Source: Maribacter sp.
GTDB taxonomy: Bacteria; Bacteroidota; Bacteroidia; Flavobacteriales; Flavobacteriaceae
Direction: 5' to 3'
Length of the DNA: 64,000 nucleotides
Assembly: GCF_016744255.1 (NCBI RefSeq)
Contig: NZ_JADGES010000004.1
Span: 10,142 to 74,141 of the forward strand
Shown here: positions 11,353 through 26,590 of the stretch, piece after piece
Layout of the letters: every line of letters begins with the position of its first letter
Position numbering within the stretch: the first letter of the stretch is position 1
Program-made: the position numbers and the translations under genes
The notes under the pieces: model-generated
Told to the model about the DNA's origin: nothing
What the model saw: only the letters and a program-made list of their open reading frames with translations
Database searches by the model: none

Positions 11353-12900
11353 GTGAATAGAGAATTAATCGTAAGATCAAGCTCTGATTCCGTTGACTTT
11401 GCCTTATTAAAGGATGGAAAACTTACTGAATTACATAAAGAAGAAGAAAAGAACGATTTCTCTGTTGGCGATATATTTATTGCTAAAATAAGAAAACCCG
11501 TTACTGGCCTTAACGCTGCATTCGTAAATGTAGGCTATGAGAAAGATGCTTTTTTGCATTATCATGACCTTGGACCGCAGCTTTCTTCTATGTTAAAATT
11601 CACTAAACAAGTAAGCACAGGGAAACTTCAAGACTTTTCCCTAAAAAACTTTCCAACCGAAAAAGATATTGATAAACATGGCGTAATAACAGATGTTATA
11701 AAGGCCAATCAATCAATATTAGTGCAAATTGTAAAAGAACCCATATCCACTAAAGGACCAAGAATAAGCTCAGAATTATCAATTGCTGGGCGCTATCTAG
11801 TAATGGTTCCTTTCTCTGACCGTGTATCTGTTTCTCAGAAAATTGCGAGCTCAGAAGAAAAAGACAGACTTAAAAGGTTAGTACGCAGTATTAAACCTAA
11901 AGGATTTGGAGTTATCATTCGTACAGTTGCCGAAGGACAAAAAGTAGCAGAATTAGACAAAGATTTAGAAAACTTGCTGGGCAAATGGTCCACAATGTGT
12001 ACAAAATTACATAAAGCACCAACACCATCTAAAGTTTTAGTAGAGCTCAACCGAGCTTCTTCTATTCTTAGAGATGTATTTAATGATTCTTTTACAGGAG
12101 TATTTGTAGATGATGAAACGCTTTATAATCAAATTAAAGATTACGTTCAAGAGATTGCACCTGCTAAAGAATCTATTGTTAAACAACATATTTCTCCTGT
12201 TCCTATTTTTGAGAAATTCGGAATTGAAAGACAAATAAAAACGTCTTTTGGCCGAACTGCTTCAATGAGCAAAGGAGCCTATTTAATTATAGAACATACA
12301 GAAGCATTACATGTTGTAGATGTTAATAGCGGTAATCGCTCTAACAAGGCCAAAAATCAAGAAGATACAGCCTTAGAAGTAAATCTTTTAGCAGCATCCG
12401 AAATTGCAAGACAATTACGTTTGCGAGATATGGGTGGTATTATAGTGGTCGATTTTATTGATATGGTAAAAGCACCGCATCGAAAAAAACTTTTTGATCA
12501 TCTTAGAGATGAGATGAAAGACGACCGTGCTAAGCATAAAATTTTACCTCCTAGTAAATTTGGATTAATCCAAATTACAAGGCAAAGGGTACGACCAGAA
12601 ATGAATATTAAAACTACTGAGGAAGACCCTAACCGTTCTGGAAAGGAAGTCGAAGCTCCTATAGTTTTAATAGACAAAATTAATTTTGCATTAGAGAAAG
12701 TCCTAAAGGGACCTGCAAAAGGAAATAGCATAACGCTAAACATTCATCCTTTTATAGCAGCATACCTTACCAAAGGCTTTCCTTCCATACGTTCTAAGTG
12801 GTTTTTAGAACACAAAAGATGGATTAAAATACAACCTCGAGATGCATATACGTATTTAGAGTACCGTTTTAAAAATAAAGACGGAAAAACCATATATTAA
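11353..12900 (+). CDS. rng: Ribonuclease E/G family (Rne/Rng); GTG start
   Basis: S1 domain (GDIFIAKI...AAFVNVGYEKDAFLH), KEPISTKGPR, VVDVNSG and DMGGIIVVDFIDM motifs. Confidence 0.93.
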   Translation: MNRELIVRSSSDSVDFALLKDGKLTELHKEEEKNDFSVGDIFIAKIRKPVTGLNAAFVNVGYEKDAFLHYHDLGPQLSSMLKFTKQVSTGKLQDFSLKNFPTEKDIDKHGVITDVIKANQSILVQIVKEPISTKGPRISSELSIAGRYLVMVPFSDRVSVSQKIASSEEKDRLKRLVRSIKPKGFGVIIRTVAEGQKVAELDKDLENLLGKWSTMCTKLHKAPTPSKVLVELNRASSILRDVFNDSFTGVFVDDETLYNQIKDYVQEIAPAKESIVKQHISPVPIFEKFGIERQIKTSFGRTASMSKGAYLIIEHTEALHVVDVNSGNRSNKAKNQEDTALEVNLLAASEIARQLRLRDMGGIIVVDFIDMVKAPHRKKLFDHLRDEMKDDRAKHKILPPSKFGLIQITRQRVRPEMNIKTTEEDPNRSGKEVEAPIVLIDKINFALEKVLKGPAKGNSITLNIHPFIAAYLTKGFPSIRSKWFLEHKRWIKIQPRDAYTYLEYRFKNKDGKTIY

Positions 12901-12953: not shown

Positions 12954-13424
12954 ATGGACAACAAAAAATTCTATTCTGTAACTGATGCTACCAAAAAATT
13001 GGAAAGTTACTGCGCCTACCAAGACCGTTGCCATAAAGAAGTAGAAACCAAATTACGGAATATGGGTATGATTCCAGAAGCCTCTAATCAAATCATAGGG
13101 CATCTTATTCAAGAAAATTATCTTAATGAAGAACGATTTTCAAAAAGCTTTGCCCGAGGTAAGTTTAGAATTAAAAAATGGGGGAAAAACCGCATTGTCA
13201 ACGAACTTAAACAACGCCAAATAACTAAATACAACATTACTATTGCTTTAAGAGAAATAGAGGAAGATGCATACTTAGAAACCTTAGATTTTTTAGCTAA
13301 AAAAAGACTAACACAAATTAACGAAACCAACATTCAGAAAAAGAAAAAAAAGCTCGCAGACTATTTGCTTTACCGTGGATGGGAAAGTCATTTAGTCTAC
13401 CAGAAATTACAAGAGCTTATTTAA
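12954..13424 (+). CDS. recX: Regulatory protein RecX
   Basis: YCAYQDRCHKEV, NEERFSKSFARGK, KWGKNRI and LLYRGW motifs. Confidence 0.92.
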   Translation: MDNKKFYSVTDATKKLESYCAYQDRCHKEVETKLRNMGMIPEASNQIIGHLIQENYLNEERFSKSFARGKFRIKKWGKNRIVNELKQRQITKYNITIALREIEEDAYLETLDFLAKKRLTQINETNIQKKKKKLADYLLYRGWESHLVYQKLQELI

Positions 13425-14507
13425 TTAAGCCTTAGCTTTTGCAGCTTCGTTTCTTTCAATTTTATAATCTGGTCTAGACCATTTTGGTTTTTCTCCTAAG
13501 GCTGCTATTTTTGAATCTTCTGCTTCTACCGTTTTCGGTTGTGAAGATTTAGTAAATGGTTTTTGTGGATTCAAGCCAAGAACTTCAAACATGGCCATAT
13601 CCTCATTTACATCCGGATTTGGTGTTGTTAGTAACTTATCCCCAGCGAAAATAGAATTAGCACCTGCAAAGAAACAAAGTGCCTGGCCTTCTCTACTCAT
13701 TTCTGTACGCCCAGCAGACAATCTTACTTGTGTTTCTGGCATAACAATTCTAGTAGCTGCTACCATACGTATCATTTCCCATATTTCTATTGGCGCAATA
13801 TCCTCCATTGGAGTACCTTCTACAGGAACTAATGCATTAATGGGAGTAGATTCTGGTTGCGGATCTAGAGAAGAAAGTGCTACTAACATTCCAGCCCTAT
13901 CTTCTAACTTTTCTCCCATACCAATAATACCACCACTACAAACAGTGATATTACTTTTTCTTACGTGGTCAATAGTTTCTAAGCGATCTTCAAAAGCACG
14001 CGTAGAAATTACATCTTTATAATAATCTTCAGAGGTATCTAAATTATGATTGTAAGCGTATAAGCCCGCTTCTGATAAACGTTTTGCCTGATTTTCTGTT
14101 ACCATACCTAAAGTACAACAAACTTCCATATCTAACTTATTAATGGTGCGTACCATTTCTAACACTTGATCAAACTCTGGTCCATCTTTAACATTACGCC
14201 AAGCAGCACCCATACAAACCCTAGAACTACCAGAAGATTTTGCTCTTAAAGCTTGCGCCTTAACATGAGAAACTGACATTAAATCATTACCCTCAATATC
14301 TGTATTATAACGAGCGGCTTGTGGACAGTACCCACAATCTTCAGAACAACCGCCCGTTTTTATAGATAATAAGGCAGAAACCTGAACCTCATTAGGGTCA
14401 TGATTTACACGATGTATAGTTGCCGCCTCATACAGCAACTCCATTAACGGTTTATTGTAAATCTCTAAAATTTCTTCTTTTGTCCAGTTATGTCTTATTT
14501 GATTCAA
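13425..14507 (-). CDS. bioB: Biotin synthase (radical SAM); TTG start
   Basis: IKTGGCSEDCGYCPQ (CxxxCxxC), YNHNLDTS, VCSGGIIGMGE, PINALV and RLSAGR motifs; the frame is intact. Confidence 0.97.
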   Translation of the reverse strand: MNQIRHNWTKEEILEIYNKPLMELLYEAATIHRVNHDPNEVQVSALLSIKTGGCSEDCGYCPQAARYNTDIEGNDLMSVSHVKAQALRAKSSGSSRVCMGAAWRNVKDGPEFDQVLEMVRTINKLDMEVCCTLGMVTENQAKRLSEAGLYAYNHNLDTSEDYYKDVISTRAFEDRLETIDHVRKSNITVCSGGIIGMGEKLEDRAGMLVALSSLDPQPESTPINALVPVEGTPMEDIAPIEIWEMIRMVAATRIVMPETQVRLSAGRTEMSREGQALCFFAGANSIFAGDKLLTTPNPDVNEDMAMFEVLGLNPQKPFTKSSQPKTVEAEDSKIAALGEKPKWSRPDYKIERNEAAKAKA

Positions 14508-14571
14508 ATTCTTCTAAAATTACAGATTTATGAATTGTGTTCTTCTCGTCTAAATGGGCTTCAAACTTCAT
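14488..14571 (-). other. 27-aa upstream ORF overlapping the bioB start out of frame
   Basis: ATG 14571 to TAA 14488 reads MKFEAHLDEKNTIHKSVILEEFESNKT; it begins 6 nt after a TAGTTTTG box. Confidence 0.3.
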
Positions 14572-14577
14572 TTTTTA

Positions 14578-14585
14578 CAAAACTA
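14578..14585 (-). promoter_or_regulatory. -7 element (TAGTTTTG) upstream of bioB
   Basis: Exact TAnnTTTG match on the minus strand, between the TBDR terminator and bioB. Confidence 0.55.
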
Positions 14586-14607
14586 TTTTAGTTAGAAAGT
14601 TTTTTAG

Positions 14608-14645
14608 AAACCAAAACTGCTCACTAACAAAGTAAAAGTGAGCAG
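14608..14645 (-). terminator. Probable terminator or attenuating hairpin between the TBDR and bioB
   Basis: Minus strand: CTGCTCACT-N11-AGTGAGCAG followed by TTTTGGTTT. Confidence 0.6.
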
Positions 14646-14673
14646 ATAAATTTAAAGTAGGAAAGTAAGATTG

Positions 14674-16506
14674 TTATTTAAAACTATAACGCAATCCAAA
14701 TAACACATTACTTGGTGGCATTGGTGTAAATCCAGACTCAATGTATTCGGCATCAAAAATATTACTTGCCGTTATGGATAATTCAACTTGTTTTAATTTC
14801 ATTACAATAGAAGCATCCCAAACATTGTACGTTTGTCCTGTGGTACGTTCAGCGTATTTGTAAACAATATTCTGACTCACGTTTTTGAATAGTTTGGTAC
14901 TCCATCGTGTTGTAAAATGATGTTTCAATGTGTTTAGAGAGTAACGCGATAATGCTTCGTTTTGGTCTAAAATATTATCATCTAAAAAAGCATAACCGAT
15001 TGCTAAAGTTTGGTTGAAGTTATTCAGCTTAAAATTATAAGCAGCATCAAATTCAAACCCTTTGGTGTTCACTTCTGTAATGTTGGTTGCTGTAAAAACA
15101 CCTTCGTCTATATTAGGTCTACTGTAATCTATTAGGTTATCGGCATCTCTATTAAAAACGGCTAAAGTTGCCGTGAATTTTGGTGTATTGTATTTAATTC
15201 CAATTTCTTGTGCAAAAGCTTCTTCTGGTTCTAAATCTGAATTCCCCTGAGTGCTTGGGTCACTGTAATACAAATCCGTGTAGGTAGGAATTCTATAGGT
15301 GTAACCAATATTTCCATAAGCTTTTAAGTTATCGCTGATATCAAAACCAACATCTAACCCAGGAAATGCATTAAATTTAAAATCTGAAAAATACGTCATA
15401 GCAACACCAGGTGTAATGTCTAATCGGTTATCAATTAACTGAAATCTGTGTTCTAAAAATAGCGTCGTCATAAAACGATTACGCTTGCCTAAATTATTAC
15501 TTCGTAAATACGTTTTAGACATATCGATTCCAAAACCAGTCTCACCCAATTCTGACTTATAAGACGCATTGGCTTCAGCTCCAATTTTATTCGAAATATG
15601 AAAGTTTCTATAAAACCCAGGATCAGAACGTCTTAAAAGAAACATATCTTGATTACGTTTCCAGTAGATTCTTGGTTGAATTTTAAACTTTTCTGATTGA
15701 AATTTAGTCGTAAATGCTAATAAACTGTTTTGAGTTTCTTCGTATTCATTAAACGTAACATTGGTAGTGTAGAAATTTTCAGCACCAAATTTTTTATCGA
15801 AAAAAGTCGCTATCATTTCAATAGGTTGTGCTTTTTTGTTGAAAACACTTTTTAAGAAATAATTTGAATTATCATAATCTGAATTATTACGGTAACCATC
15901 AGAAGTCATTTTCCCAGCATGAAAAATATGTATTGAATTCTCTAATTCTGACCCAACGGTTACAGAACCATTAAGCTGACCAAAAGAACCAGCTTGAAGA
16001 TTTGCAGTAACAGAATTATTTAAGTTAGATTTAGTGACAATATTAATGGCACCTGTAAAAGCGTTCTGCCCAAAAACTCTAGCCGCAGGTCCTTTTATAA
16101 TTTCTATGCGCGCAATAACCTCTAGCGGTAAAGAAGCATTCATGGAATGATGACCTGTTTGTGCATCGTCCATTTTAATACCATCAATTAATAAGAGTGT
16201 TTGGTCAAAACCCCCACCTCTAATAAACAAATCAGCCTGACTCCCGCCAGTGCCACGTCTTCTAATGTCTACACCAGCAACTTGCTGTAATAAATCTGCA
16301 ATGGTAACGGCTGAACTATTTTTAATATCCGTTGCTGTAATAATATTTATGGTTCTAGAATTTTCTTTGAAGGGTAAATCAATTCGAGTTGAAGTAACTA
16401 CAACTTCACTTAAAGTATCGATTTTTATTATAGGTTGTTCTTGTTGCGCATGTAACTGAAATGCGCTAATTAGTAAAAATGTAAAAAGTAAGACTGTATT
16501 TTTCAT
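14674..16506 (-). CDS. Small TonB-dependent receptor (BtuB-like size, no N-terminal extension)
   Basis: Signal peptide, TonB box region (DTLSEVVVT), plug motif (IRGGGFDQTLLLIDG; RIEIIKGPAARVFGQNAFTGAINIVT) and C-terminal aromatic barrel end (FGLRYSFK). Confidence 0.92.
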   Translation of the reverse strand: MKNTVLLFTFLLISAFQLHAQQEQPIIKIDTLSEVVVTSTRIDLPFKENSRTINIITATDIKNSSAVTIADLLQQVAGVDIRRRGTGGSQADLFIRGGGFDQTLLLIDGIKMDDAQTGHHSMNASLPLEVIARIEIIKGPAARVFGQNAFTGAINIVTKSNLNNSVTANLQAGSFGQLNGSVTVGSELENSIHIFHAGKMTSDGYRNNSDYDNSNYFLKSVFNKKAQPIEMIATFFDKKFGAENFYTTNVTFNEYEETQNSLLAFTTKFQSEKFKIQPRIYWKRNQDMFLLRRSDPGFYRNFHISNKIGAEANASYKSELGETGFGIDMSKTYLRSNNLGKRNRFMTTLFLEHRFQLIDNRLDITPGVAMTYFSDFKFNAFPGLDVGFDISDNLKAYGNIGYTYRIPTYTDLYYSDPSTQGNSDLEPEEAFAQEIGIKYNTPKFTATLAVFNRDADNLIDYSRPNIDEGVFTATNITEVNTKGFEFDAAYNFKLNNFNQTLAIGYAFLDDNILDQNEALSRYSLNTLKHHFTTRWSTKLFKNVSQNIVYKYAERTTGQTYNVWDASIVMKLKQVELSITASNIFDAEYIESGFTPMPPSNVLFGLRYSFK

Positions 16507-16571
16507 CTATTTTAGTTTTGCAATAGTTGTTATTGCATCATTTAATTTTATTCTGTAAAAGTCGTAACTTT

Positions 16572-16618
16572 CCGGACGATTAAACTAGTCCAGTTTTAAA
16601 ACAATGAATAGTCCGGTT
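16572..16618. promoter_or_regulatory. Three-box MocR-type operator
   Basis: CCGGAC (16572-16577) is inverted to GTCCAG (16588-16593); direct repeats TAGTCCAGTT (16586-16595) and TAGTCCGGTT (16609-16618) are 23 bp apart. Confidence 0.65.
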
Positions 16619-18100
16619 AGCGATATATTAAAACAACTTGTCACATTCGACAAAACGATTGTACAACCTGTTTATATACAAGTAGCACAACAAATTATAA
16701 ATGCGATACAACGTGGCTATTTAGAAAAAGGCGGTAAGCTACCTGGAACACGTATTTTAAGTCAGTTGTTAAACATTCATCGCAATACAGCTGTTGCTAT
16801 TTACGAAGAATTGGCTTCACAAGGTTGGGTAGATATTATTGCTAATAAAGGGACTTTTGTTTTGGTTCCAGAGGAATCTACAGTGAAAATTAAAGCAACA
16901 GCTCAGCTTATTCATCAGGCTTATACGTATCCAAAAGTAGCTGGTTTTCCTTTTCAACAGTCCTTTCATTTGGCTTCAACAACAGAAGAAACTTCATCAA
17001 AATACACAATAAGCGATGGTAAACCAGATTTACGTTTACATCCCGTGTACCAGTTTTCTAGATGGTACAGTGCAGCAATGAAACGGAAACCATTAATTAA
17101 TAAATGGAATAGAACAAGTGCTTTAACTCCTTCGGTTTTTAGCACACAACTTTGTAATTATTTAAACGCAACACGAGGATTTCATATAAAACCAAATAAT
17201 TTAGTAAATACACGTAGCACAGAAATGAGCCTGTACATAGTTTCTCAATTATTAATTAAACACGATGATTTAGTGTTGGTTGGGCAATTGAGTAATTATG
17301 CAGCTAATATGATTTTTCAACAAGCTGGCGCAGCGATTAGAACAATTCCTGTAGATAGTGAAGGTCTAAATATAGAGTATATAAAAACGCATTTTGTAAA
17401 AGGAAGTATACGCTGTGTGTATGTTTGTGCCAATAGAGATTATCCTACAACTGTAACGTTGAGCGCAAAACGACGATTACAATTATTGCAATTAGCAAAA
17501 ACGCATGGATTTGCCATTATAGAAGATGATTACGACTACGATTTTCAGTTTGACGGGTCTGCAATGTTACCAATGGCAAGTGCAGATGCCAACGGAATGG
17601 TTATTTATTTGGGCAAGCTAGGGCAGTCGTTATTTCCAAGTTTCCACACGGGCTTTGTAGTAGCGCCAGAAAACTTGATTTCTGAAGCTAAAAACTATTT
17701 GCAATTATTGGATAAACAAGGAGATTTAATACAAGAACAAATGCTTTCTGAACTTATTTCTGAAGGCGAAATATATAGACTTAAGAAAAAAAACATAGTC
17801 ACTTACAAACAGCGTCGCGATAGTTTATGCCATTTTTTAAATTTTTATTTTGAAGGTATTACAACTTGGGAAATGCCCTTAGGTGGTTTGGCAATATGGT
17901 TGCAATTTGTAGAAACAATATCCTTAGTGAAACTTGCTGAGGAAGCCGAAAAATTAGATTTATTTCTACCAAAAACTATTTTATATCAAGATAAAAATAC
18001 CTGTGCTATACGTTTTGGCTTTGGGCAATTAAATGAAGAAGAAATCGAAATTGTAATTAAGAAGTTGAAAAGTGCTTATAATAAGGTTATTAATCTTTAA
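16604..18100 (+). CDS. MocR/GabR family regulator (GntR wHTH + PLP-aminotransferase-like domain)
   Basis: VYIQVAQQIINAIQRG..LPGTRILSQLLNIHRNTAVAIYEELASQGW wHTH; IIEDDYDYDF motif; divergent from the TBDR. Confidence 0.93.
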   Translation: MNSPVSDILKQLVTFDKTIVQPVYIQVAQQIINAIQRGYLEKGGKLPGTRILSQLLNIHRNTAVAIYEELASQGWVDIIANKGTFVLVPEESTVKIKATAQLIHQAYTYPKVAGFPFQQSFHLASTTEETSSKYTISDGKPDLRLHPVYQFSRWYSAAMKRKPLINKWNRTSALTPSVFSTQLCNYLNATRGFHIKPNNLVNTRSTEMSLYIVSQLLIKHDDLVLVGQLSNYAANMIFQQAGAAIRTIPVDSEGLNIEYIKTHFVKGSIRCVYVCANRDYPTTVTLSAKRRLQLLQLAKTHGFAIIEDDYDYDFQFDGSAMLPMASADANGMVIYLGKLGQSLFPSFHTGFVVAPENLISEAKNYLQLLDKQGDLIQEQMLSELISEGEIYRLKKKNIVTYKQRRDSLCHFLNFYFEGITTWEMPLGGLAIWLQFVETISLVKLAEEAEKLDLFLPKTILYQDKNTCAIRFGFGQLNEEEIEIVIKKLKSAYNKVINL

Positions 18101-18197
18101 TAGGACTGTTTTTAGTCTCGCAATATATTTTGAACTCTTTAGTAATAGGAAGTGTAATTCTCGAACAATCAACCGCTAATAACTTAAAATCTTTCCA
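18090..18197 (-). mobile_element. IS4-family (DDE) transposase remnant
   Basis: Reads WKDFKLLAVDCSRITLPITKEFKIYCETKN, resembling the IS4 first-catalytic-Asp motif W-K-G-x-R-L-x-A-x-D-G-S-x-x-x-L-P; stops lie on both sides. Confidence 0.6.
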
Positions 18198-18292
18198 TTG
18201 TTATTTAAAAGGTAAAATTACCATCATTTTATTTTCCTGACACCTCTCATAGTAGTAGTTTAATTTTTTTAGCGAATACCTTTATTCCATAA

Positions 18293-18330
18293 TATAAACC
18301 TAGTTGCTTTTCACTGCAACTAGGTTTATA
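18293..18330. terminator. Terminator hairpin downstream of the AbiH gene
   Basis: TATAAACCTAGTTGC-N8-GCAACTAGGTTTATA, a perfect 15-bp stem. Confidence 0.75.
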
Positions 18331-18358
18331 TCTACTTTAAAAATTGTCTTCTAATTCT

Positions 18359-19462
18359 TTATCCAATCTTTCTCGGTTTTGGCATGGGTTGAGATTTCTC
18401 TTTTGGAACTAATTTCTTCCTCATAAGGCCTTTATCCTTAAAATGTCTAGATATTTCATAAGTCTTGTCTGTAAAATCATCCGAACCATCAGCCCTTTTA
18501 TGATAAAAAATCTTAATAGATTTACAATTATCATGCTCGAATATTTCATTTAACATAGTCCTATCTGACAAACCACAAGAATGTCCAATAACAAATACCT
18601 GAAAATCATTTGATTCAATAAATCTTATCAAATCATGATAATTTTGAGTCTGAGAATACTTAAAAGATTTAATATGAGTAAAAAGACTATTGTTTTTCTT
18701 ATTTTCAAACTTAAGATAGTTTTCATCTAACTCATCTCCAAATCCAAATATTATTGGATTCTCTTTAACCTCTAATTCGCCATGTATATAATTATGCTTT
18801 ACAATATCTTGGTTTGAAATATTTTTTAAATAATTACCTACAGTATCAGTATAGTTAAAATTTAAAAAATAAATAGCTGCTGGATCCAAATCTTGATCCA
18901 AAGTATTAATTACAATATCGTCTCTAATTATCTTTTGCGAAAAAAGATTTGAATAAACTTTACCAAAAAAGTTAACTTCAGATATTTTAAGGCTAATTAA
19001 ATATTCATTCAGTTTTATTCCAATAAAGGTAAACTGGGAATTTAACTTTTCAACTGCTTCCTTTTTTTCTTTTATAATAATTAAATATTGAAAATAACTA
19101 GCTTCAATATCTACCCAATTTAAATCAGTGAGTTTTGTATAAAGAAATTCAAAAAAAGGTGAATGAAATATAACATTCACCTTTACCATACTTGAAATTT
19201 TAGATGATTTGAGATTTTTAATGTGTTCTCTAATATCATCGAAATTATTAATTATTAATTCAAAATCAGAAGTAAACATATAGCTGCTTGCATATGACAA
19301 CTCAAACAATTGATCTTCATAAGAGTCTTTCTCATGAAAAATAATAATTGCCTTTTTAAAATAATCAAAAATAAAATCCTTGTAGCTTGTTTTGAGACCG
19401 TGCGCCAAATCAAAACCGTTCCCTAATAATACAAGCCTATTCATTTGACCATTTTTAGCCAT
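18359..19462 (-). CDS. AbiH family abortive-infection (anti-phage) protein
   Basis: RLVLLGNGFDLAHGLKTSYKDF, FLNFNYTDT, YIHG..NPIIFGFGDE and IGHSCGLSD motifs. Confidence 0.88.
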   Translation of the reverse strand: MAKNGQMNRLVLLGNGFDLAHGLKTSYKDFIFDYFKKAIIIFHEKDSYEDQLFELSYASSYMFTSDFELIINNFDDIREHIKNLKSSKISSMVKVNVIFHSPFFEFLYTKLTDLNWVDIEASYFQYLIIIKEKKEAVEKLNSQFTFIGIKLNEYLISLKISEVNFFGKVYSNLFSQKIIRDDIVINTLDQDLDPAAIYFLNFNYTDTVGNYLKNISNQDIVKHNYIHGELEVKENPIIFGFGDELDENYLKFENKKNNSLFTHIKSFKYSQTQNYHDLIRFIESNDFQVFVIGHSCGLSDRTMLNEIFEHDNCKSIKIFYHKRADGSDDFTDKTYEISRHFKDKGLMRKKLVPKEKSQPMPKPRKIG

Positions 19463-19483
19463 AATATTTTCAAAAATATTTAA

Positions 19484-20926
19484 CTATTCTTCCGCATCGT
19501 CTTTTAATGCTTCTTTTTTGTTAGACCCATCTTCCACTGCAACAGCACCATCAACAATATCTTTTCCTTTTAAATATTCTGGTAATTGCATTCCAGCCAT
19601 ATTAAACATTTCCTGCAATGGAGGAACAGATTTATACATTCCAGAAATAAAGTTAGCTGTAGATCCCTTACCATCAGCAGTTTTTGCTCCAGAATCCCAC
19701 ACAGTAACCTTATCAATTTTAATATTCTTAATAGCTTCGGCCTGCGTTCTTACTAATTCTGGCAACTTGTCAGCAACTAACAATAGAACAGCATCTTTAG
19801 GACTATCCCCTGCTGCTTTTACAATCTGTTCTAAACCAGCAGCTTGCTTCGTTAACACCTCATACATACCTTTTGCTTCTGCTTGCGCTTTAAAAAGTAT
19901 GGCATCCGCCTCTCCTTTTGCTATTCTACGAGTTCTTTCCGCATCCGCTTCTGCATCTATCTCTACTTTCTTTTTATCAATTTCTGCAGGAACAATAATA
20001 TCTGCCATTTGAGAACTTCTTTCTCTTTCTGCTCTAGCAACTTCCGCATTTTGTTCTGCTGCGTAAGATTCTTCTAATGCTTTGGCAGATTGCACTTTTT
20101 CCGAAGCAATAGCCACTCTTTCTGCTTCTGCTTCTCTTTGCCTACGTAAGGAATCGGAGTTGGCTACATTAATTTTTGCAATATTTTCCCCTTCCACAGC
20201 CTGTGCGTTAGCAGCAGCTACTTGTGTTCTTTCATCTTGTACTGCATTAGCTTCTCCAATAGAACCATCTCTAGTCTTTTCTGCTACCGATTTACGCGCT
20301 GCATTTATTGCGTGTGCTGCGGCCTCTTTACCAAGCGCCTCAATATATCCAGATTCATCTACAATATCTGTAATATTTACGTTGATTAATTTAAGTCCCA
20401 CTTTCTTAAGTTCTGACTCCACACTTTTAGAAATGTTAGTCAAAAATTTATCTCTATCCGAGTTAATTTCTTCAATATCCATAGAAGCTACAACCAAACG
20501 TAATTGACCAAAAATAATCTCTTGTGCTAAGTCTTGAATCTCATTTTGCCCCAAGCCTAACAAACGTTCTGCTGCGTTTTGCATAATACCTGGTTCTGTA
20601 GAAACACCAATAGTAAACCTAGAAGGTACATTTACTCTAATATTCTGCTTACTCAATGCATTTATTAAGTTTACTTCTATAGATATAGGCGTTAAATCTA
20701 AAAACTCATAATCTTGAATAACTGGCCAAATAAAAGCGGCTCCACCGTGTACACATTTTGCAGAATTGCCATCGCCAACTTTACCATAGACCACTAAAAT
20801 ACGATCCGATGGGCAACGCTTATACCTACGTATAAATGAAATAATAATGATAAAAAAGAAAAGAACAGCAAAGCCCAAAGTAAGCAATGTAGCACTTCCT
20901 CCTAATTGTAATGGTAATAATAGCAT
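19484..20926 (-). CDS. Flotillin / SPFH (band 7) family membrane scaffold protein
   Basis: N-terminal TM, RYKRCPSDRILVVYG, GGAAFIWPVIQ SPFH domain and an Ala/Glu-rich flotillin coiled coil. Confidence 0.92.
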   Translation of the reverse strand: MLLLPLQLGGSATLLTLGFAVLFFFIIIISFIRRYKRCPSDRILVVYGKVGDGNSAKCVHGGAAFIWPVIQDYEFLDLTPISIEVNLINALSKQNIRVNVPSRFTIGVSTEPGIMQNAAERLLGLGQNEIQDLAQEIIFGQLRLVVASMDIEEINSDRDKFLTNISKSVESELKKVGLKLINVNITDIVDESGYIEALGKEAAAHAINAARKSVAEKTRDGSIGEANAVQDERTQVAAANAQAVEGENIAKINVANSDSLRRQREAEAERVAIASEKVQSAKALEESYAAEQNAEVARAERERSSQMADIIVPAEIDKKKVEIDAEADAERTRRIAKGEADAILFKAQAEAKGMYEVLTKQAAGLEQIVKAAGDSPKDAVLLLVADKLPELVRTQAEAIKNIKIDKVTVWDSGAKTADGKGSTANFISGMYKSVPPLQEMFNMAGMQLPEYLKGKDIVDGAVAVEDGSNKKEALKDDAEE

Positions 20927-20930
20927 ATAG

Positions 20931-21509
20931 TTATTTATTTAATAGTTCAACAATTAATATTCCGTTATTAGTAACCTCTTTTACTTTAACCACATCTCCT
21001 TGGACGAGGTCTCTTTTTTCTTCGGTTAAAGCATCTAATTCTCGCAAAGTACCCTGCACTGTAATACTCACTTTACCAATTTTAGACCTTTTATTCCCTA
21101 TCGTTAAATACACTTCCCCGATTTGATTCAGTGCGTTGTTTAATTTTAAAGTTCCGCTACTTTGCAGTTTTCCCAAATAATAAAATATTGAAGCCATTGC
21201 TAGCATCATAAGCAATCCACAAACAATAGATATTATTACGGTTAGTGTTTTAGATAAACCCCCATCTAAACAAGAAATTCCAGACCATCCAAAAATAGTA
21301 AGGAAACCCATTAAATTTTTAAAACTTAAAAATTGAAAACCTATTCCAGCATCACCATCAATTTCCGCATCTACATCGCCATCCATTCCATCGGTATCAC
21401 CACCTACCAATGTAAGTATCAATAATATGATAAAAATAACAGAGGAAACCCCAGCAATAGACCAATAAATCTTCTCAAAAAGTGATAACGCAGCAAACCA
21501 TTCTTCCAT
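20931..21509 (-). CDS. NfeD-like / YqiJ-like membrane protein, flotillin partner
   Basis: Three TM helices plus a C-terminal OB-fold (GEVYLTIG..GKVSITVQGTLRELDA); 4 nt upstream of the flotillin gene. Confidence 0.8.
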   Translation of the reverse strand: MEEWFAALSLFEKIYWSIAGVSSVIFIILLILTLVGGDTDGMDGDVDAEIDGDAGIGFQFLSFKNLMGFLTIFGWSGISCLDGGLSKTLTVIISIVCGLLMMLAMASIFYYLGKLQSSGTLKLNNALNQIGEVYLTIGNKRSKIGKVSITVQGTLRELDALTEEKRDLVQGDVVKVKEVTNNGILIVELLNK

Positions 21510-21578
21510 AAATTATAATATTTAGGTTAGTAATTCTAAGATAGAGTATTTTTTGAAAAAGGATAAGAAAAATCTTTC

Positions 21579-21850
21579 TTATTTGGAAAGCAAAATAGAA
21601 ACAGTATTACCGCCAAAACCAACAGCATTTACCATTATTTTATTCATTTTTGATTGGCGACTACTTTCTACAAATGGAACACCTATAAACTCTTAATGTA
21701 TTAACATTAACACAGCAAATTTTAAACTTAATGAGCCCGATGCTCCGAAAGTATGCCCTAGTTTCCATTTATTAGTAGTTAAATGTGCTGCTTTGTTACA
21801 AAAAACTTTTCAATAGCCTCTCTAGAAGCCAACAATGCATATGGATCCGT
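21579..21850 (-). pseudogene. Beta-ketoacyl synthase (FabB/FabF-like) remnant
   Basis: ...YALLASREAIE[K, 1-nt deletion]VFCNKAAHLTTNKWKLGHTFGASGSLSLKFAVLMLIH*EFIGVPFVESSRQSKMNKIMVNAVGFGGNTVSILLSK*. It keeps the KAS motifs KxxxGHTxGASG and NxxGFGG, with an internal TAA at 21693-21695. Confidence 0.8.
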
Positions 21851-21946
21851 AACTTAGGCTACGCTTATATTTCCTATTTCATCTGAACAAATAATAATTC
21901 AAATTTATTTCAGCCCTTTTGAAAATTATTTGGTATTATATCTATC

Positions 21947-23473
21947 TTGCAAAGATGGGAAATAATCGTATACTACTTGATGCTTAAAACAGTAATATCT
22001 ACATTAACACCTAATTATTCACAATTAAAAAGCAGAAGTGTATTTTTATTACTTTCTGCTATTTCTTTTGTACTACGCTTTCCTTTTTTTTTCAGAGATT
22101 ATATAGATAGAGACGAAAGTACTTTTATTCTTTTAGGTCAATCATGGGTGGAAGGCCATCTGCCATATACAGAGCTTTGGGATTTAAAACCTCCTATTAC
22201 TTATATTTTCTTTGCTGGGATTATTGCTGCCTTTGGGAAAAGCTTTATTGCCATAAGAGCGGTTGGTGTTTTAATTGTTGCTATTACAGCTTTTTTTACC
22301 TTTAAAATTGCAATACAACTAACCACAAGAAAAACAGCTTTTTGGGCTTCTTTTCTATGTGTGTGTCTACTAAGTATGTTTGGTAGCCTACAAGGGGTAA
22401 TGTCCGAACATATATGCATGTTCTTTTTTATGCCCGCCCTTTATATTGTACTTAGCTATAATCAATGGCAATGGCACGCCATTGCAGGTTTACTATTTGG
22501 ATTATCTGTAATGACCAAACTAAATATGGCCTACCCTGTACTTATAATTGGTTTGTATACCTTATATATTGCAATAAAAAACAAAAACATTAGTAAAGGG
22601 CTTCTTCATTCTTTTGCCTTTGGCACGGGCATTATATTACTTATTTTTTTAACCATTATTCCATATTATATACATGGAAATACAGAAATATGGTGGAAAT
22701 CTGTAATTCTGGCCCCATTAGAATACACTAACGCAAGGAGATATTCTATTTTTAAAATGGCTCCGATTTTTATTATCATAGGTACTTTTTTCTTTTTTTC
22801 TTGGAAAAATAAGTCTTTAAATTTTAGCAATAAAAAGCTTCAATTATTACTATTAGTTGTCTTTGGAATACTAGTTTCTTTTATAAAAGGAGGTAGAATT
22901 AATGGGCACTATTTAATACAATTACATCCCATCTTTATCATTTTAGTGGCAATTGTAGTTTCTAAGATTACTTTTTTTAAAAAATGGAATTACCAGACTT
23001 TGGTGTTCTTTTCATTAGTACTGCTTCCCATGGAGAGTTATTTAGAAATAGGAAACATCATAAAAAACAAAATACAAAGAGGAACTTTTTTCAATGGCGA
23101 GGGCATTTCTGTACCTAAATATATTTTAGATAATAATATTTCTACCGAAAACATTCTCTTTTTAGAATACCATATTGGTTACTGGCAATTAGGAAAACTG
23201 CCTCTAACCAAGGCAGCAACACACCCCAGTAATTTATGCAGAGATGAGCTTTTTTCTTTTTATGACAACCCTAGAAAGGACTCTACAGAAGAACTCCGAC
23301 ACATTATGGAAGTATTACAACCGCAAACTGTGGTAATACGAAAGGGTAAAAGGGTTTTTGATAAAAAAGAACTAGAAGAGAACGAATACATAGACACCTA
23401 CCTTTCCGAACATTATACTTTAAAATCTACTGTAGAAAGAGCAGAAATATTACAACGCTTAGAGGGACATTAA
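21947..23473 (+). CDS. GT-C fold membrane glycosyltransferase (ArnT/PMT-like); true start probably the ATG near 21980
   Basis: Polytopic membrane protein with DRDESTF and WDLKPP first-loop motifs and a soluble C-terminal domain. Confidence 0.75.
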   Translation: MQRWEIIVYYLMLKTVISTLTPNYSQLKSRSVFLLLSAISFVLRFPFFFRDYIDRDESTFILLGQSWVEGHLPYTELWDLKPPITYIFFAGIIAAFGKSFIAIRAVGVLIVAITAFFTFKIAIQLTTRKTAFWASFLCVCLLSMFGSLQGVMSEHICMFFFMPALYIVLSYNQWQWHAIAGLLFGLSVMTKLNMAYPVLIIGLYTLYIAIKNKNISKGLLHSFAFGTGIILLIFLTIIPYYIHGNTEIWWKSVILAPLEYTNARRYSIFKMAPIFIIIGTFFFFSWKNKSLNFSNKKLQLLLLVVFGILVSFIKGGRINGHYLIQLHPIFIILVAIVVSKITFFKKWNYQTLVFFSLVLLPMESYLEIGNIIKNKIQRGTFFNGEGISVPKYILDNNISTENILFLEYHIGYWQLGKLPLTKAATHPSNLCRDELFSFYDNPRKDSTEELRHIMEVLQPQTVVIRKGKRVFDKKELEENEYIDTYLSEHYTLKSTVERAEILQRLEGH

Positions 23474-23835
23474 TTTATCTCTAAACAAATTGCATACTTC
23501 TAAATCACTTCTTTATTAAATTCCTTCTCTTCGTTGATTCGGCCTATAATAGTAGCTCTTATTTTCTTTATAATAATATTTTCTGTGGTAGGGTGCTCAT
23601 CTTCACTAAATAGTTATGGCACATTAAAACTTTTTTCTTGCAGAGCAAAGACTGTCTATAAGGTAGGATTAATACTTCCCAGATAGCATCTAGAAACAAC
23701 CACTACTTTATGTTCCTGTTTAATTATATCTAATACCGTATCTGTATCATTCAAAGGAACTAATAATCCGCCTGCTCCCTCAATAACCAAATGATTATCT
23801 GTTACTGAAGCTACAATATTTTCTAACTTTATTCC
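23470..23835 (-). pseudogene. bioD: Dethiobiotin synthase remnant (C-terminal half, three in-frame stops)
   Basis: GIKLENIVASVTDNHLVIEGAGGLLVPLNDTDTVLDIIKQEHKVVVVSRCYLGSINPTL*TVFALQEKSFNVP*LFSEDEHPTTENII...EVI*KYAI... It has the BioD EGAGG and LGxINH-like motifs. Stops are at 23656-8, 23614-6 and 23500-2, and the N-terminal P-loop half is absent. Confidence 0.9.
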
Positions 23836-24212
23836 GGTTTAGTTATCATACCACATTGAAGGCATTTGTATTTTCTTTTTTCGAAAAAAGGAAATAGCTT
23901 GTGAAATATTCCTTTGCGAGAGTAATATACATCTGATTTTTCTGCCTTACAGTTTGGGCATTTTATTGGATCTCCGTCACAATCTATTGCATAAGCACGT
24001 ATTTCATTATAAATTTTCAGAGCCCGTTCTTTATCCTTAGCGTATACTTGTAGTTTTACTCCACCAATAGCATTGCTAATTATCGGGTCCGAGTTTAACG
24101 TGTTTTCATCTCTTAAAAAAACAGGAATTCCTTCGGATTCTAATTTCCCTTTAATAATCTGCACATCAGCTGCAAACTCAAACGATCCTAAGATGTAAAA
24201 TTTTTCTTCCAT
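23829..24212 (-). CDS. DUF2007 family protein with a C-terminal zinc ribbon
   Basis: KGKLESEGIPVFLRDE..GGVKLQV DUF2007 motif; CPNC...CLQC; starts 1 nt after the bioF stop. Confidence 0.8.
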   Translation of the reverse strand: MEEKFYILGSFEFAADVQIIKGKLESEGIPVFLRDENTLNSDPIISNAIGGVKLQVYAKDKERALKIYNEIRAYAIDCDGDPIKCPNCKAEKSDVYYSRKGIFHKLFPFFEKRKYKCLQCGMITKPE

Positions 24213-24213
24213 A

Positions 24214-25371
24214 TTATTTTAAACAACCACTTAATATTTGCAACACTAAACCAATTTCCTCTTTAGAATTCTGAGCATGCAAACAAAAACGAAGCCTCTC
24301 TTCTCCTTCAGGGACTGTTGGTGATAAAATTGCTTTTACATTAAAACCCTTGTCTTGTAATTTAGCTGCTACCTTTTTTACATTTTCATTTCCAGGGATA
24401 AGACAACATTGAATTGCAGAATCGCTAGGCAAAAATATAGTCTGTAATTTTAAATCTTTTGCCTTGTTTTTAAAGTGCCTTATGTTCCCTAACAGAAGCT
24501 TTCTTGCTTCTATCCCCTGATTACTAGTAACAAATCTAAAGGCGGCCATAATAGTAGCTACAGAGTGAGGAGGCAAACCAGTGGTATAAATAAAACTATG
24601 CGAAAAATTTATTAAATATACCTTTAATCGCTCACTCCCTAAAACAGCTGCACCATGACAACCCATAGCCTTACCAAAAGTTACTATTCTAGCAAACACC
24701 TCTTTATATGCCTTGTTTTGTTGTACCAAACCTTCTCCCTGAGTGCCAAAAACACCTATAGCATGAGCTTCATCAACCACTAAATGACACCCTTTTTTCT
24801 TTGTGAATTTTAGTAATGCATCTATATCTGGAGAATCGCCATCCATAGAAAAAATAGATTCTGTTACGATATAAACCTCACCCGTAAATTCTTTAGAAAT
24901 AGCTTGTGATAATTTTTCTTCTAAGTCCGCTAGACTATTATGTTTAAACTTATAATTTTTAGCATTACTTAATAAAATACCATCGCGAATGCTAGCATGT
25001 ATAAGCTCATCAAACAAAATAATATCTCCTCTTTGCGGTACAGCACTAAAAAAGCCCAAATTAGCATCATAACCAGAGTTAAATACCAATGCACTATCGG
25101 ACTTAAAAAAAGCAGGCAAATCTACCTCTAAATCTTTATACAAATTATGATTTCCAGAAATAAGCCTAGAACCTGTAGCTCCATTATGAGAAATACCTTT
25201 ATTTAATAATAACTGGAAGGTATTGGCGTACAAAGTATCATTAGTAGCGAAACCTAAATAATCGTTCGAAGAAAAATCAACCAAATTACCATTAGTTGGT
25301 AGGCTTCTAAGAGCATCTTCTTGCTCTCTCTTTTTTAATTTGGCATCTAAATTAGAGGGGAAATTACGCAT
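24214..25371 (-). CDS. bioF: 8-amino-7-oxononanoate synthase
   Basis: DFSSNDYLG, GSRLISG, DELIHASIRDG, ESIFSMDGD, DEAHA and TFGKA (PLP Lys) motifs; lies in the bio cluster. Confidence 0.88.
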   Translation of the reverse strand: MRNFPSNLDAKLKKREQEDALRSLPTNGNLVDFSSNDYLGFATNDTLYANTFQLLLNKGISHNGATGSRLISGNHNLYKDLEVDLPAFFKSDSALVFNSGYDANLGFFSAVPQRGDIILFDELIHASIRDGILLSNAKNYKFKHNSLADLEEKLSQAISKEFTGEVYIVTESIFSMDGDSPDIDALLKFTKKKGCHLVVDEAHAIGVFGTQGEGLVQQNKAYKEVFARIVTFGKAMGCHGAAVLGSERLKVYLINFSHSFIYTTGLPPHSVATIMAAFRFVTSNQGIEARKLLLGNIRHFKNKAKDLKLQTIFLPSDSAIQCCLIPGNENVKKVAAKLQDKGFNVKAILSPTVPEGEERLRFCLHAQNSKEEIGLVLQILSGCLK

Positions 25372-25435: not shown

Positions 25436-26002
25436 TTATTTAGATACTGTAAAATTTAAAAATAAAGGGTTGTTTTTAGTTATGGTATGGTTTATTCCAA
25501 CTGTGGGTTTATCTGTGTTATAAACACTTGAAATATACATATAGTCAAAATCTAATTGATAATCTCCTTCTTCTATTAGAATAACCCCTATCCTTGATTC
25601 GTACATATCCGTGTCGTTATTTAAAATTGCAGCTGGCTGGCTATAATAACTAATCATCCCTTTTTCTGCAATTATATATTGCTCGTCTATATTTACACCC
25701 ACGTAATCATCCGAAAAAGCAGAATATTTACGCACTTCAAAATTATAGGAGAACTCATCTACTCCAGATGTTTCGTATAAATCCAAAAGGCTAGAATACC
25801 CCTCTTCTGGTAAGTATCTACTAAAATTTAGTTCAAAAAATAGCGTATCACCCACCACATAGCTTACTTTGTTTTCTACTTTTATAGCGTCTTTTATATC
25901 TACCTCCACATTATTCCAATACACATCATCATCTGGTGGAGAGCACTGCATCCCCAAAACAGCTAAAAACAAAATTGAAATACTTACAATTACTTTTTTC
26001 AT
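25436..26002 (-). CDS. Hypothetical lipoprotein
   Basis: Lipobox GMQC; beta-rich; no family recognised. Confidence 0.6.
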   Translation of the reverse strand: MKKVIVSISILFLAVLGMQCSPPDDDVYWNNVEVDIKDAIKVENKVSYVVGDTLFFELNFSRYLPEEGYSSLLDLYETSGVDEFSYNFEVRKYSAFSDDYVGVNIDEQYIIAEKGMISYYSQPAAILNNDTDMYESRIGVILIEEGDYQLDFDYMYISSVYNTDKPTVGINHTITKNNPLFLNFTVSK

Positions 26003-26011
26003 TATTTCTTT

Positions 26012-26590
26012 TTAAAATCTATACCCAACTTTTATACCCGTTCTAACCAAACCAACATCAAAAAGCAAAACATCTTCAAAATTTGTCCGTATACCAATTT
26101 GAGCTTCCATAGACATTCTTTTATGGAATGCTAAAAAACGATACCCATAACCAGCACCAAGGCCTACATTTTCAATATTTCGAGTACCATAATCATAAAC
26201 GCCATATCCAGAAGCGTTATTACTTCTTTGAAGACCACTATCGGTTTCTGCCCTATTATAACTGCCAAAAATTTCGAAAAAATGACTCCTTTTTTGGGTT
26301 CCATTTACATACAAACGTGCATAAGGATTTATCTCATAATTTACTTTGTAATTGCTATATTCCTCTGCAGTTTTCAAATTGAGTTTCTGATGGGCATTAC
26401 TATATATAACTCCTCCCACACCCACAGTAAAATACTTGTTTAGAGTTCTCTCATAATTAAGCTCTGGACTTCCTAGGAGCAAATAACTTAAATTACCCGA
26501 GAATTGATTTTTATAAATTTCCTCCTCTTCTTCTTGAGAAAACAGGCTAACAGAAAATAATAGCGCAAATACTATCCAAAAATTCTTCAT
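26012..26590 (-). CDS. Outer-membrane beta-barrel protein (DUF3575-like)
   Basis: Signal peptide, alternating beta-strands and a C-terminal GIKVGYRF. Confidence 0.7.
   Translation of the reverse strand: MKNFWIVFALLFSVSLFSQEEEEEIYKNQFSGNLSYLLLGSPELNYERTLNKYFTVGVGGVIYSNAHQKLNLKTAEEYSNYKVNYEINPYARLYVNGTQKRSHFFEIFGSYNRAETDSGLQRSNNASGYGVYDYGTRNIENVGLGAGYGYRFLAFHKRMSMEAQIGIRTNFEDVLLFDVGLVRTGIKVGYRF

Follow-up and report, generated by a model that had tools for sequence, protein, structure and literature searches.

A TonB-dependent receptor–MocR cassette acquired at a decaying biotin locus is a candidate uptake system for biotin and desthiobiotin in Flavobacteriaceae

Seawater contains little biotin, a vitamin that about half of aquatic bacteria are unable to make, and how biotin and desthiobiotin get into Gram-negative marine cells has been stated to be unknown (PMC9561691). 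We analyzed a 64,000-nt stretch of DNA from a bacterium deposited as Maribacter sp. (contig NZ_JADGES010000004.1; hereafter the window, to which all coordinates refer), taken from a genome that is 99.88% complete. Here a biotin (bio) gene cluster is breaking up beside a divergent pair of genes encoding a TonB-dependent receptor (TBDR) and a MocR-subfamily regulator. A sequence-only reading of the window had proposed that the receptor imports desthiobiotin or other biotin vitamers under the control of the MocR protein. Comparative genomics supports that proposal through complementarity with bioA, adjacency to bioB and a shared operator, and amends it in that biotin itself is the likelier general substrate. 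The genes and features at the center of the analysis are as follows.

13425-14507, minus strand: bioB (biotin synthase), intact; TIGR00433 at 398.4 bits, cut-off 225
~14608-14645, minus strand: terminator-like hairpin 3' of the TBDR gene, within the acquired cassette; from sequence inspection and an RNA fold
14674-16506, minus strand: BtuB-like TBDR of 610 amino acids; plug and barrel Pfam domains
16554-16616, no strand: operator and promoter in the TBDR/MocR spacer; conserved boxes
16604-18100, plus strand: MocR-subfamily regulator with a GntR helix-turn-helix (PF00392) and an aminotransferase-like domain
14600-18340, no strand: horizontally acquired TBDR-MocR cassette; from DNA identity and absence in same-genus genomes
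21582-21809, minus strand: scar of a FabF-like ketoacyl synthase (KAS); tblastn against the KAS of locus L041
23479-23832, minus strand: bioD pseudogene; TIGR00347 and tblastn
24214-25371, minus strand: bioF (8-amino-7-oxononanoate synthase), intact; TIGR00858 at 342 bits

Two biotin-synthesis genes, bioF and bioB, are intact, as the sequence-only reading had it. BioB keeps the radical S-adenosylmethionine motif CSEDCGYC and all of the 2Fe-2S ligand cysteines, and is 89-91% identical to BioB of same-genus genomes. For BioF, TIGR00858 is the best-scoring family yet falls under its cut-off of 426 bits, and the Pfam score equals that of a same-genus ortholog. The bioD half-gene with three stops proved by tblastn to be a 5'-deleted remnant: the first ~81 codons are deleted, and the C-terminal 119 codons correspond to residues 82-200 of a 206-aa relative at 59% identity, with three in-frame stops. 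This remnant matches positions 99-160 of TIGR00347 at 50 bits, below the cut-off of 83. What had been read as a ketoacyl synthase scar is likewise one: of 386 codons the final 76 remain, interrupted by one stop, at 76% identity to residues 311-386 of the L041 KAS by tblastn. No trace of bioA was found in the window, and across the whole genome the best match reaches 243 bits against a family cut-off of 405, the top matches being paralogous aminotransferases of 22-27% identity. A search of the host genome for a second bioD also returned none.

The genes that frame this locus, and that serve as landmarks for comparison with other genomes, are listed next.

11353-12900, plus strand: RNase G
12954-13424, plus strand: recX
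18359-19462, minus strand: AbiH-family gene; PF14253 at 89 bits
19484-20926, minus strand: flotillin (SPFH); Band_7 at 113 bits
20931-21509, minus strand: flotillin partner of 192 amino acids
21947-23473, plus strand: PMT-like glycosyltransferase
23829-24212, minus strand: DUF2007 gene; PF09413
Beyond bioF: two unknown genes, a GNAT gene and atpC

In each of seven species of the same genus, the cluster is complete and reads bioF-DUF2007-bioD-(glycosyltransferase)-bioA-KAS-(192-aa gene, flotillin)-bioB-recX. The TBDR-MocR cassette is absent from all seven genomes, and no MocR ortholog was found in them, the best of all candidates scored being 38% identical. Relative to these loci, 2,216 bp comprising bioA and most of KAS (L041 4948-7163) are replaced in the window by 116 bp (21820-21935), 229 bp of the bioD 5' end are gone, and a TBDR-MocR segment has been added between the flotillin gene and bioB. 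This added segment (~14600-18105, or to 18340 against one relative) shares 85-89% DNA identity with loci from Maribacter species and a Winogradskyella isolate, whereas its flanks are 65-78% identical to those loci and 80-92% identical to same-genus genomes. Because identity to the same loci is high within the segment and low in its flanks, the TBDR-MocR pair is a horizontally transferred 3.5-kb cassette, and it is exchanged between genera at one and the same locus. The sequence-only reading had allowed that the receptor could equally be an unrelated insertion; it is an insertion, and its linkage to biotin genes speaks against the other half of that alternative. In the Winogradskyella isolate 3-713-3Z (L048), the TBDR and MocR genes are 88% identical to those of the window at the DNA level and the flanks 67-82%, apart from a short 88% match in a conserved ATP synthase gene.

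We then looked for the cassette in other genomes. A scan of one genome per species gave 80 named loci with a TBDR ortholog, from Winogradskyella, Maribacter, Flagellimonas/Muricauda, Croceivirga, Psychroserpens, Lacinutrix, Olleya, Gaetbulibacter and Tamlana. All 80 fall in the block atpC ... DUF2007 ... recX, where prototrophs carry their bio genes, and 72 have MocR divergently beside the receptor. None of the 80 contains bioF, bioA or KAS; bioD is found in four, and bioB in three, each time directly downstream of the TBDR gene. Absences of the receptor are unreliable in the whole-genome protein search, in which 31 of up to 70 receptor candidates per genome were scored, and MocR was therefore used as the marker, since its orthologs separate cleanly from paralogs. 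In a sample of 401 Flavobacteriaceae species from 302 genera, a MocR ortholog is present in 50 at 66-100% identity, with next-best matches at ≤44%; this marker's reliability was examined in 13 genomes for which every candidate was scored. For comparison, bioA occurs in 224 and bioB in 233 of the species. Only 2 of the 50 MocR carriers have bioA versus 222 of the 351 non-carriers, and five genera (g1, g47, g56, g57, g80) hold a carrier without bioA together with a non-carrier that has it, with no exception. Across the family, orthologs of the TBDR and MocR are thus tightly linked to the biotin genes. Four loci (L051, L052, L056, L125), from Maribacter aquimaris, M. arenosus, M. polysiphoniae and a metagenome-assembled genome, have lost bioF, bioA, KAS and bioB and are left with a full-length bioD match; as bioD survives in these Maribacter-like carriers, the order of pathway decay differs between lineages.

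Genomes that keep bioB without bioA are the most informative. There are 11 such cases among the 401, of which G020 was rejected because its contig breaks with KAS beside bioB at the contig end. Eight of the remaining genomes carry the cassette described above (type 1), and in all eight bioB is the next same-strand gene downstream of the TBDR gene, the measured gaps being 21-192 nt. In the window, the receptor gene is co-oriented with bioB and lies 166 nt upstream of it, in agreement with the earlier measurement. The other two genomes (G054, G143) carry a second cassette type (type 2), equally arranged as MocR<>TBDR-bioB, with 28-33% identity in the TBDR and 39-42% in MocR; congeners of both have the type-2 pair without bioB. 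Such a receptor therefore stands immediately upstream of bioB in 10 of 10 genuine bioB-only genomes, and the divergence of the two bioB-linked types implies that the linkage of receptor and bioB is old. One genome (G229) shows the full state, bioF-DUF2007-bioD-bioA-KAS-...-flotillin | MocR | TBDR-bioB | recX. In a tree of the receptors, bioB-linked members are basal and scattered through the crown, and strongly supported branches force at least six changes, a pattern that fits a receptor and bioB ancestrally linked, with bioB then lost repeatedly. In the same tree, the Maribacter receptors fall within those of Winogradskyella, in agreement with transfer between genera.

A precedent for the use of BioB alone exists in marine bacteria. 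Strains of the Roseobacter group that have only bioB are rescued by desthiobiotin, whose entry route was stated to be unknown; in the same study, the Flavobacteriaceae group was counted as a class of mostly prototrophs (Wienhausen et al. 2022, PMC9561691). The likeness is that only BioB is kept, so that external desthiobiotin is converted to biotin, and that bioB-only status is shared by this genome and by 10 of the 401 family members. The difference is that those strains belong to the Roseobacter group, whereas the present analysis names an outer-membrane candidate and its regulator for Flavobacteriaceae.

The divergent MocR regulator and its operator, both pointed out in the sequence-only reading, hold up on closer analysis. 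The protein has a GntR winged helix-turn-helix (PF00392, 35.9 bits, cut-off 27), its residues 17-492 align with PdxR (7pq9) at E = 1.4e-30, and the aminotransferase-like domain scores 18.9 bits with Pfam Aminotran_1_2, just below the cut-off of 19.7. The segment YLGKLGQSLFPSFHTGF aligns with YLGAFSKSLIPSVRISY of PdxR, placing Gln at the FSK lysine and His at the phosphate-binding Arg. In all 71 receptor-linked type-1 regulators, Gln replaces the lysine that forms the Schiff base with pyridoxal 5'-phosphate (PLP), and the phosphate-binding Arg is His or Gln. In type-2 receptor-linked regulators, the lysine site is occupied by Arg, His or Lys, and the phosphate-binding Arg is lost.

The spacer between the divergent genes is 97 nt long and holds three boxes. 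Read on the TBDR strand, these are CCGGACTA at 16609-16616, inside the first MocR codons, CTGGACTA at 16586-16593, and the inverted box TCGTCCGG at 16572-16579; the two direct boxes read C(C/T)GGACTA. A −7-like element, GACTTTTA, follows the boxes, and the first ~50 nt of the spacer, TGTTTTAAAACTGGACTAGTTTAATCGTCCGGAAAGTTACGACTTTTGCA, are almost invariant across genera. At 16554-16560 this element is TTTTACA here versus TTTTGCA or TTTTGTA in most orthologous spacers, a deviation that may mean a weaker promoter. Since the boxes overlap the promoter and the regulator's start codon, the arrangement suggests that MocR represses the receptor gene and regulates itself. The full operator site occurs once in this genome. 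A wider MocR regulon was accordingly rejected, and no inner-membrane carrier could be traced by that route.

The assignment of the cassette to biotin is strengthened by relatives of the regulator elsewhere in the order. In another family of Flavobacteriales, 18 of 18 MocR orthologs (46-48% identity) are divergent from a complete orf207-bioF-bioD-bioB-bioA operon, and so is the 43% identical ortholog of G218. These bio-operon-linked regulators keep both the PLP Schiff-base Lys and the phosphate-binding Arg (SFGK...GFR). One three-box arrangement is common to type-1 receptors, type-2 receptors, the G218 bio operon and the bio operons of the other family. As the same operator architecture thus governs whole bio operons, regulon logic places the receptor in the biotin regulon.

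Turning to the receptor, the plug (PF07715, 77.9 bits, cut-off 23.9, residues 48-153) and the barrel (PF00593, 109.2 bits, cut-off 27, residues 206-582) are both well matched. By eye, the N-terminus offers MKNTVLLFTFLLISAFQLHAQ as a candidate signal peptide, followed by ..LSEVVVTST.. as a candidate TonB-box-like strand. The closest solved structure is E. coli BtuB, and BtuB also gives the best family model, at scores far under the cut-offs (TIGR01779, 158 bits versus 599.7; NF007926, 144.6 bits versus 836). The two share the form of a small receptor of ~600 amino acids, with a 22-strand barrel and a plug, serving a scarce vitamin; they differ in that the present receptor has a protein regulator, no cobalamin riboswitch, and a biotin rather than a cobalamin context. 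Outer-membrane TonB-dependent receptors take up thiamine, a small B vitamin, in Bacteroides. Those receptors resemble the one proposed here in being outer-membrane B-vitamin receptors of Bacteroidota, but they are under thiamine pyrophosphate (TPP) riboswitches. Riboswitch control of the TBDR was rejected, as neither the window nor the surroundings of 10 homologs gave a match at the gathering score of any Rfam family, cobalamin and TPP types included. The known biotin carriers BioY/BioMNY (energy-coupling factor type) and YigM are likewise uptake counterparts of biotin synthesis, often found in auxotrophs; they are inner-membrane proteins unrelated in sequence to the TBDR, which is proposed for the outer membrane. 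BioY was absent from 26 of 26 Flavobacteriaceae genomes and was rejected as the inner-membrane partner; YigM was not searched for.

From the computed gene states, transfer, phyletic pattern, gene order, operator conservation and loss of the PLP lysine, we infer a substrate, a direction of regulation, an effector and continued use of bioB as follows. The receptor would carry biotin, and probably also desthiobiotin, over the outer membrane at the low concentrations of seawater; desthiobiotin differs from biotin by the sulfur bridge only. MocR would bind the three C(C/T)GGAC-type boxes overlapping the TBDR promoter and its own start codon, and would thereby make expression of the receptor depend on biotin status. 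Desthiobiotin, once imported, would be converted to biotin in those genomes that retain bioB directly downstream. In this genome, horizontal transfer would have brought the cassette in between bioB and the flotillin gene; its acquisition would have made de novo synthesis dispensable, and the pathway would now be breaking up, with bioA and KAS deleted, bioD truncated and bioB intact. That the cassette is biotin-related we regard as highly probable, and transport of biotin and/or desthiobiotin by the receptor as likely. The whole explanation, including desthiobiotin salvage through bioB, is the one we lean toward; whether such salvage is active in this particular genome could go either way. Most carriers lack bioB, so biotin is the more likely general substrate and probably the main one, desthiobiotin salvage being limited to the minority that keeps bioB.

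Several observations weigh against this explanation. The Fisher p of 7e-17 for the absence of bioA in carriers overstates independence, as the genomes are related, and the five within-genus contrasts alone give p = 0.06 in a two-sided sign test. The anti-correlation of cassette and bioA could partly reflect physical replacement at one locus. A type-1 MocR ortholog is missing from 129 of the 177 bioA-negative genomes, and bioB from 40 of the 50 carriers, so desthiobiotin cannot be the general substrate. Some TBDR orthologs have no MocR (L111, L115, L116, L120-L122, L124, L126, L127, and L021 of G016), and the prototroph G012 (L020) has a TBDR at 50% identity that is distant from its bio genes; the orthologs are not uniform in regulation and perhaps not in function. 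Neither the BioY search nor the operator search identified an inner-membrane biotin carrier. In this genome, the TBDR gene and bioB have a terminator-like hairpin between them, no MocR box is seen upstream of bioB, and bioB may simply not have decayed yet, as bioF is equally conserved though useless.

The last of these points leads to the strongest competing explanation, in which the cassette imports biotin only and bioB, like bioF, is a leftover of a recently broken pathway, with no working desthiobiotin salvage here. The hairpin lies 29 nt after the TBDR stop and consists of the stem CUGCUCACU..AGUGAGCAG followed by the U-run UUUUGGUUU. RNA folding gives a 9-bp stem; owing to its 11-nt loop, the hairpin escaped a simple terminator scan. 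This stretch can be aligned with the Maribacter cassette loci L049 and L052. Co-orientation here therefore does not imply a single transcript, and with no MocR box before it bioB is probably transcribed alone, from a promoter of its own. As to selection, dN/dS (the ratio of nonsynonymous to synonymous substitution rates) is 0.03-0.08 for bioB and 0.09-0.14 for bioF, the latter as among prototrophs; dS is saturated and both genes look constrained, so the test is uninformative about relaxed selection. In the window lineage, bioB has a slightly elevated dN, at 0.052-0.071 versus 0.03-0.044 in comparably diverged pairs. Since bioF is useless without bioA and bioD and yet as intact and constrained as bioB, the intactness of bioB here is weak evidence for its use, and the family-wide pattern carries the argument. 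The frequent absence of bioB from carriers, and the Maribacter-like carriers that kept bioD in its place, also fit import of biotin alone. Against this stand the adjacency of bioB to such a receptor in every bioB-only genome, across several genera and two divergent cassette types, which chance retention does not explain, the full set of BioB catalytic residues, and the fact that bioD and KAS already have stops whereas bioB has none. We consider the biotin-only account unlikely, though it is the rival that fares best.

Much less probable is that the TBDR-MocR pair is unrelated to biotin, takes up a vitamin B6 vitamer or an amino compound, and merely shares a variable neighborhood with bio genes. 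The regulator's best NCBIfam match is indeed PdxR-like (NF052282), studied MocR regulators control B6, γ-aminobutyric acid (GABA), taurine and ectoine genes, biotin going unmentioned in a survey of their regulons (PMC5320631), and some TBDR orthologs sit beside unrelated genes such as tgt or a uvrA-like gene. The PdxR-like match, however, falls short of its cut-off (253.8 versus 320 bits), every receptor-linked type-1 ortholog lacks the PLP lysine, and no pdx gene adjoins the MocR gene. As a control for general vitamin-pathway loss, pdxJ was found in 50 of 50 MocR carriers, so vitamin B6 is not the link; with the universal pdxJ and the lost lysine, the B6 hypothesis was rejected. The association with missing bioA is specific and also holds within genera. 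The regulator orthologs on complete bio operons with the same operator, and bioB as the immediate downstream gene in two cassette types of such low TBDR identity, point the same way. Import of an earlier intermediate for the remaining bio enzymes, be it pimelate, 7-keto-8-aminopelargonate (KAPA) or 7,8-diaminopelargonate (DAPA), would suit the intact bioF of this genome and an ancestral regulator form with a PLP site potentially able to detect amines such as KAPA or DAPA, but is scarcely credible, as bioA is missing from cassette genomes, and bioD and bioF from nearly all of them, leaving early intermediates unusable, and the window's own bioD is dead.

Returning to import of biotin and desthiobiotin under MocR control, the receptor and the regulator appear to belong to known kinds, a vitamin TBDR and a MocR regulator, and it is the functional assignment of each that would be new. 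Full-text literature searches found no paper tying a MocR protein or a TonB receptor to biotin. The regulator resembles PdxR- and GabR-type MocR proteins in domain architecture, divergent arrangement and an operator with direct and inverted repeats, and differs from them in its target genes and, in the receptor-linked form, in lacking the Schiff-base Lys and the phosphate-binding Arg. BirA, BioR (of the GntR family, in alphaproteobacteria) and BioQ are dedicated, usually autoregulated factors encoded beside bio or biotin transporter genes (PMC5343134). The present gene shares that position, whereas its product is of the MocR subfamily with an aminotransferase-like sensor domain. A broader account would be that Flavobacteriales own a MocR-family biotin regulator, PLP-competent on the bio operon and Lys-less in the derivative on the biotin/desthiobiotin TBDR, and that the 3.5-kb cassette moves between genera into the bio locus, to be followed by step-wise loss of de novo synthesis, with this genome in mid-process; we hold this to be about as plausible as its opposite. 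If correct, these assignments would give the first outer-membrane transporter named for biotin vitamers and a new type of biotin regulator beside BirA, BioR and BioQ. They would also yield a sequence marker by which biotin auxotrophs and desthiobiotin salvagers could be recognized among the Flavobacteriaceae, a family with a major part in degrading algal matter, and a natural example of an uptake system gained and a biosynthetic pathway then lost.

Some neighboring genes merit separate mention. The AbiH gene (abortive-infection family) is a separate insertion outside the biotin system: the inserted region, 18341-19478, falls to 25-27% G+C and lies exactly between the MocR 3' flank and the end of the flotillin gene, two features that adjoin directly in Maribacter aquimaris (L051), whose locus has nothing equivalent. 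The flotillin gene and its 192-aa partner are resident, hold an equal position in same-genus loci, and split the bio cluster in this genus. The DUF2007 gene lies between bioF and bioD in prototrophs and stays beside MocR in most auxotrophs without bio genes (L048-L127); as it outlasts all bio genes, it is not simply a biotin-synthesis gene. It directly adjoins the receptor in three Winogradskyella loci.

Directly upstream of bioF, two genes of 188 and 192 amino acids (25436-26590) are conserved in the same genus and have no Pfam or NCBIfam match. The first gene of the MocR-linked bio operon, orf207, encodes an unannotated protein of ~207 amino acids in all 18 genomes of the other family and in G218 (L145:10381-11004 in G030; L139:9347-9982 in G218; L150-L167). 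A relationship between orf207 and the two genes upstream of bioF was rejected, as no similarity was found. The protein has two E-x-x-H-like motifs (EEHRHAYY, EEEGHLEEM) and weak ferritin/COQ7-like matches, and could be an unrecognized enzyme of pimelate-moiety synthesis. Both this genus (for example L041:6245-7405) and G229 have the FabF-like KAS (148 bits, cut-off 494) as a constant part of their bio cluster, lying between bioA and bioB; by analogy with BioZ, it may start pimeloyl synthesis.

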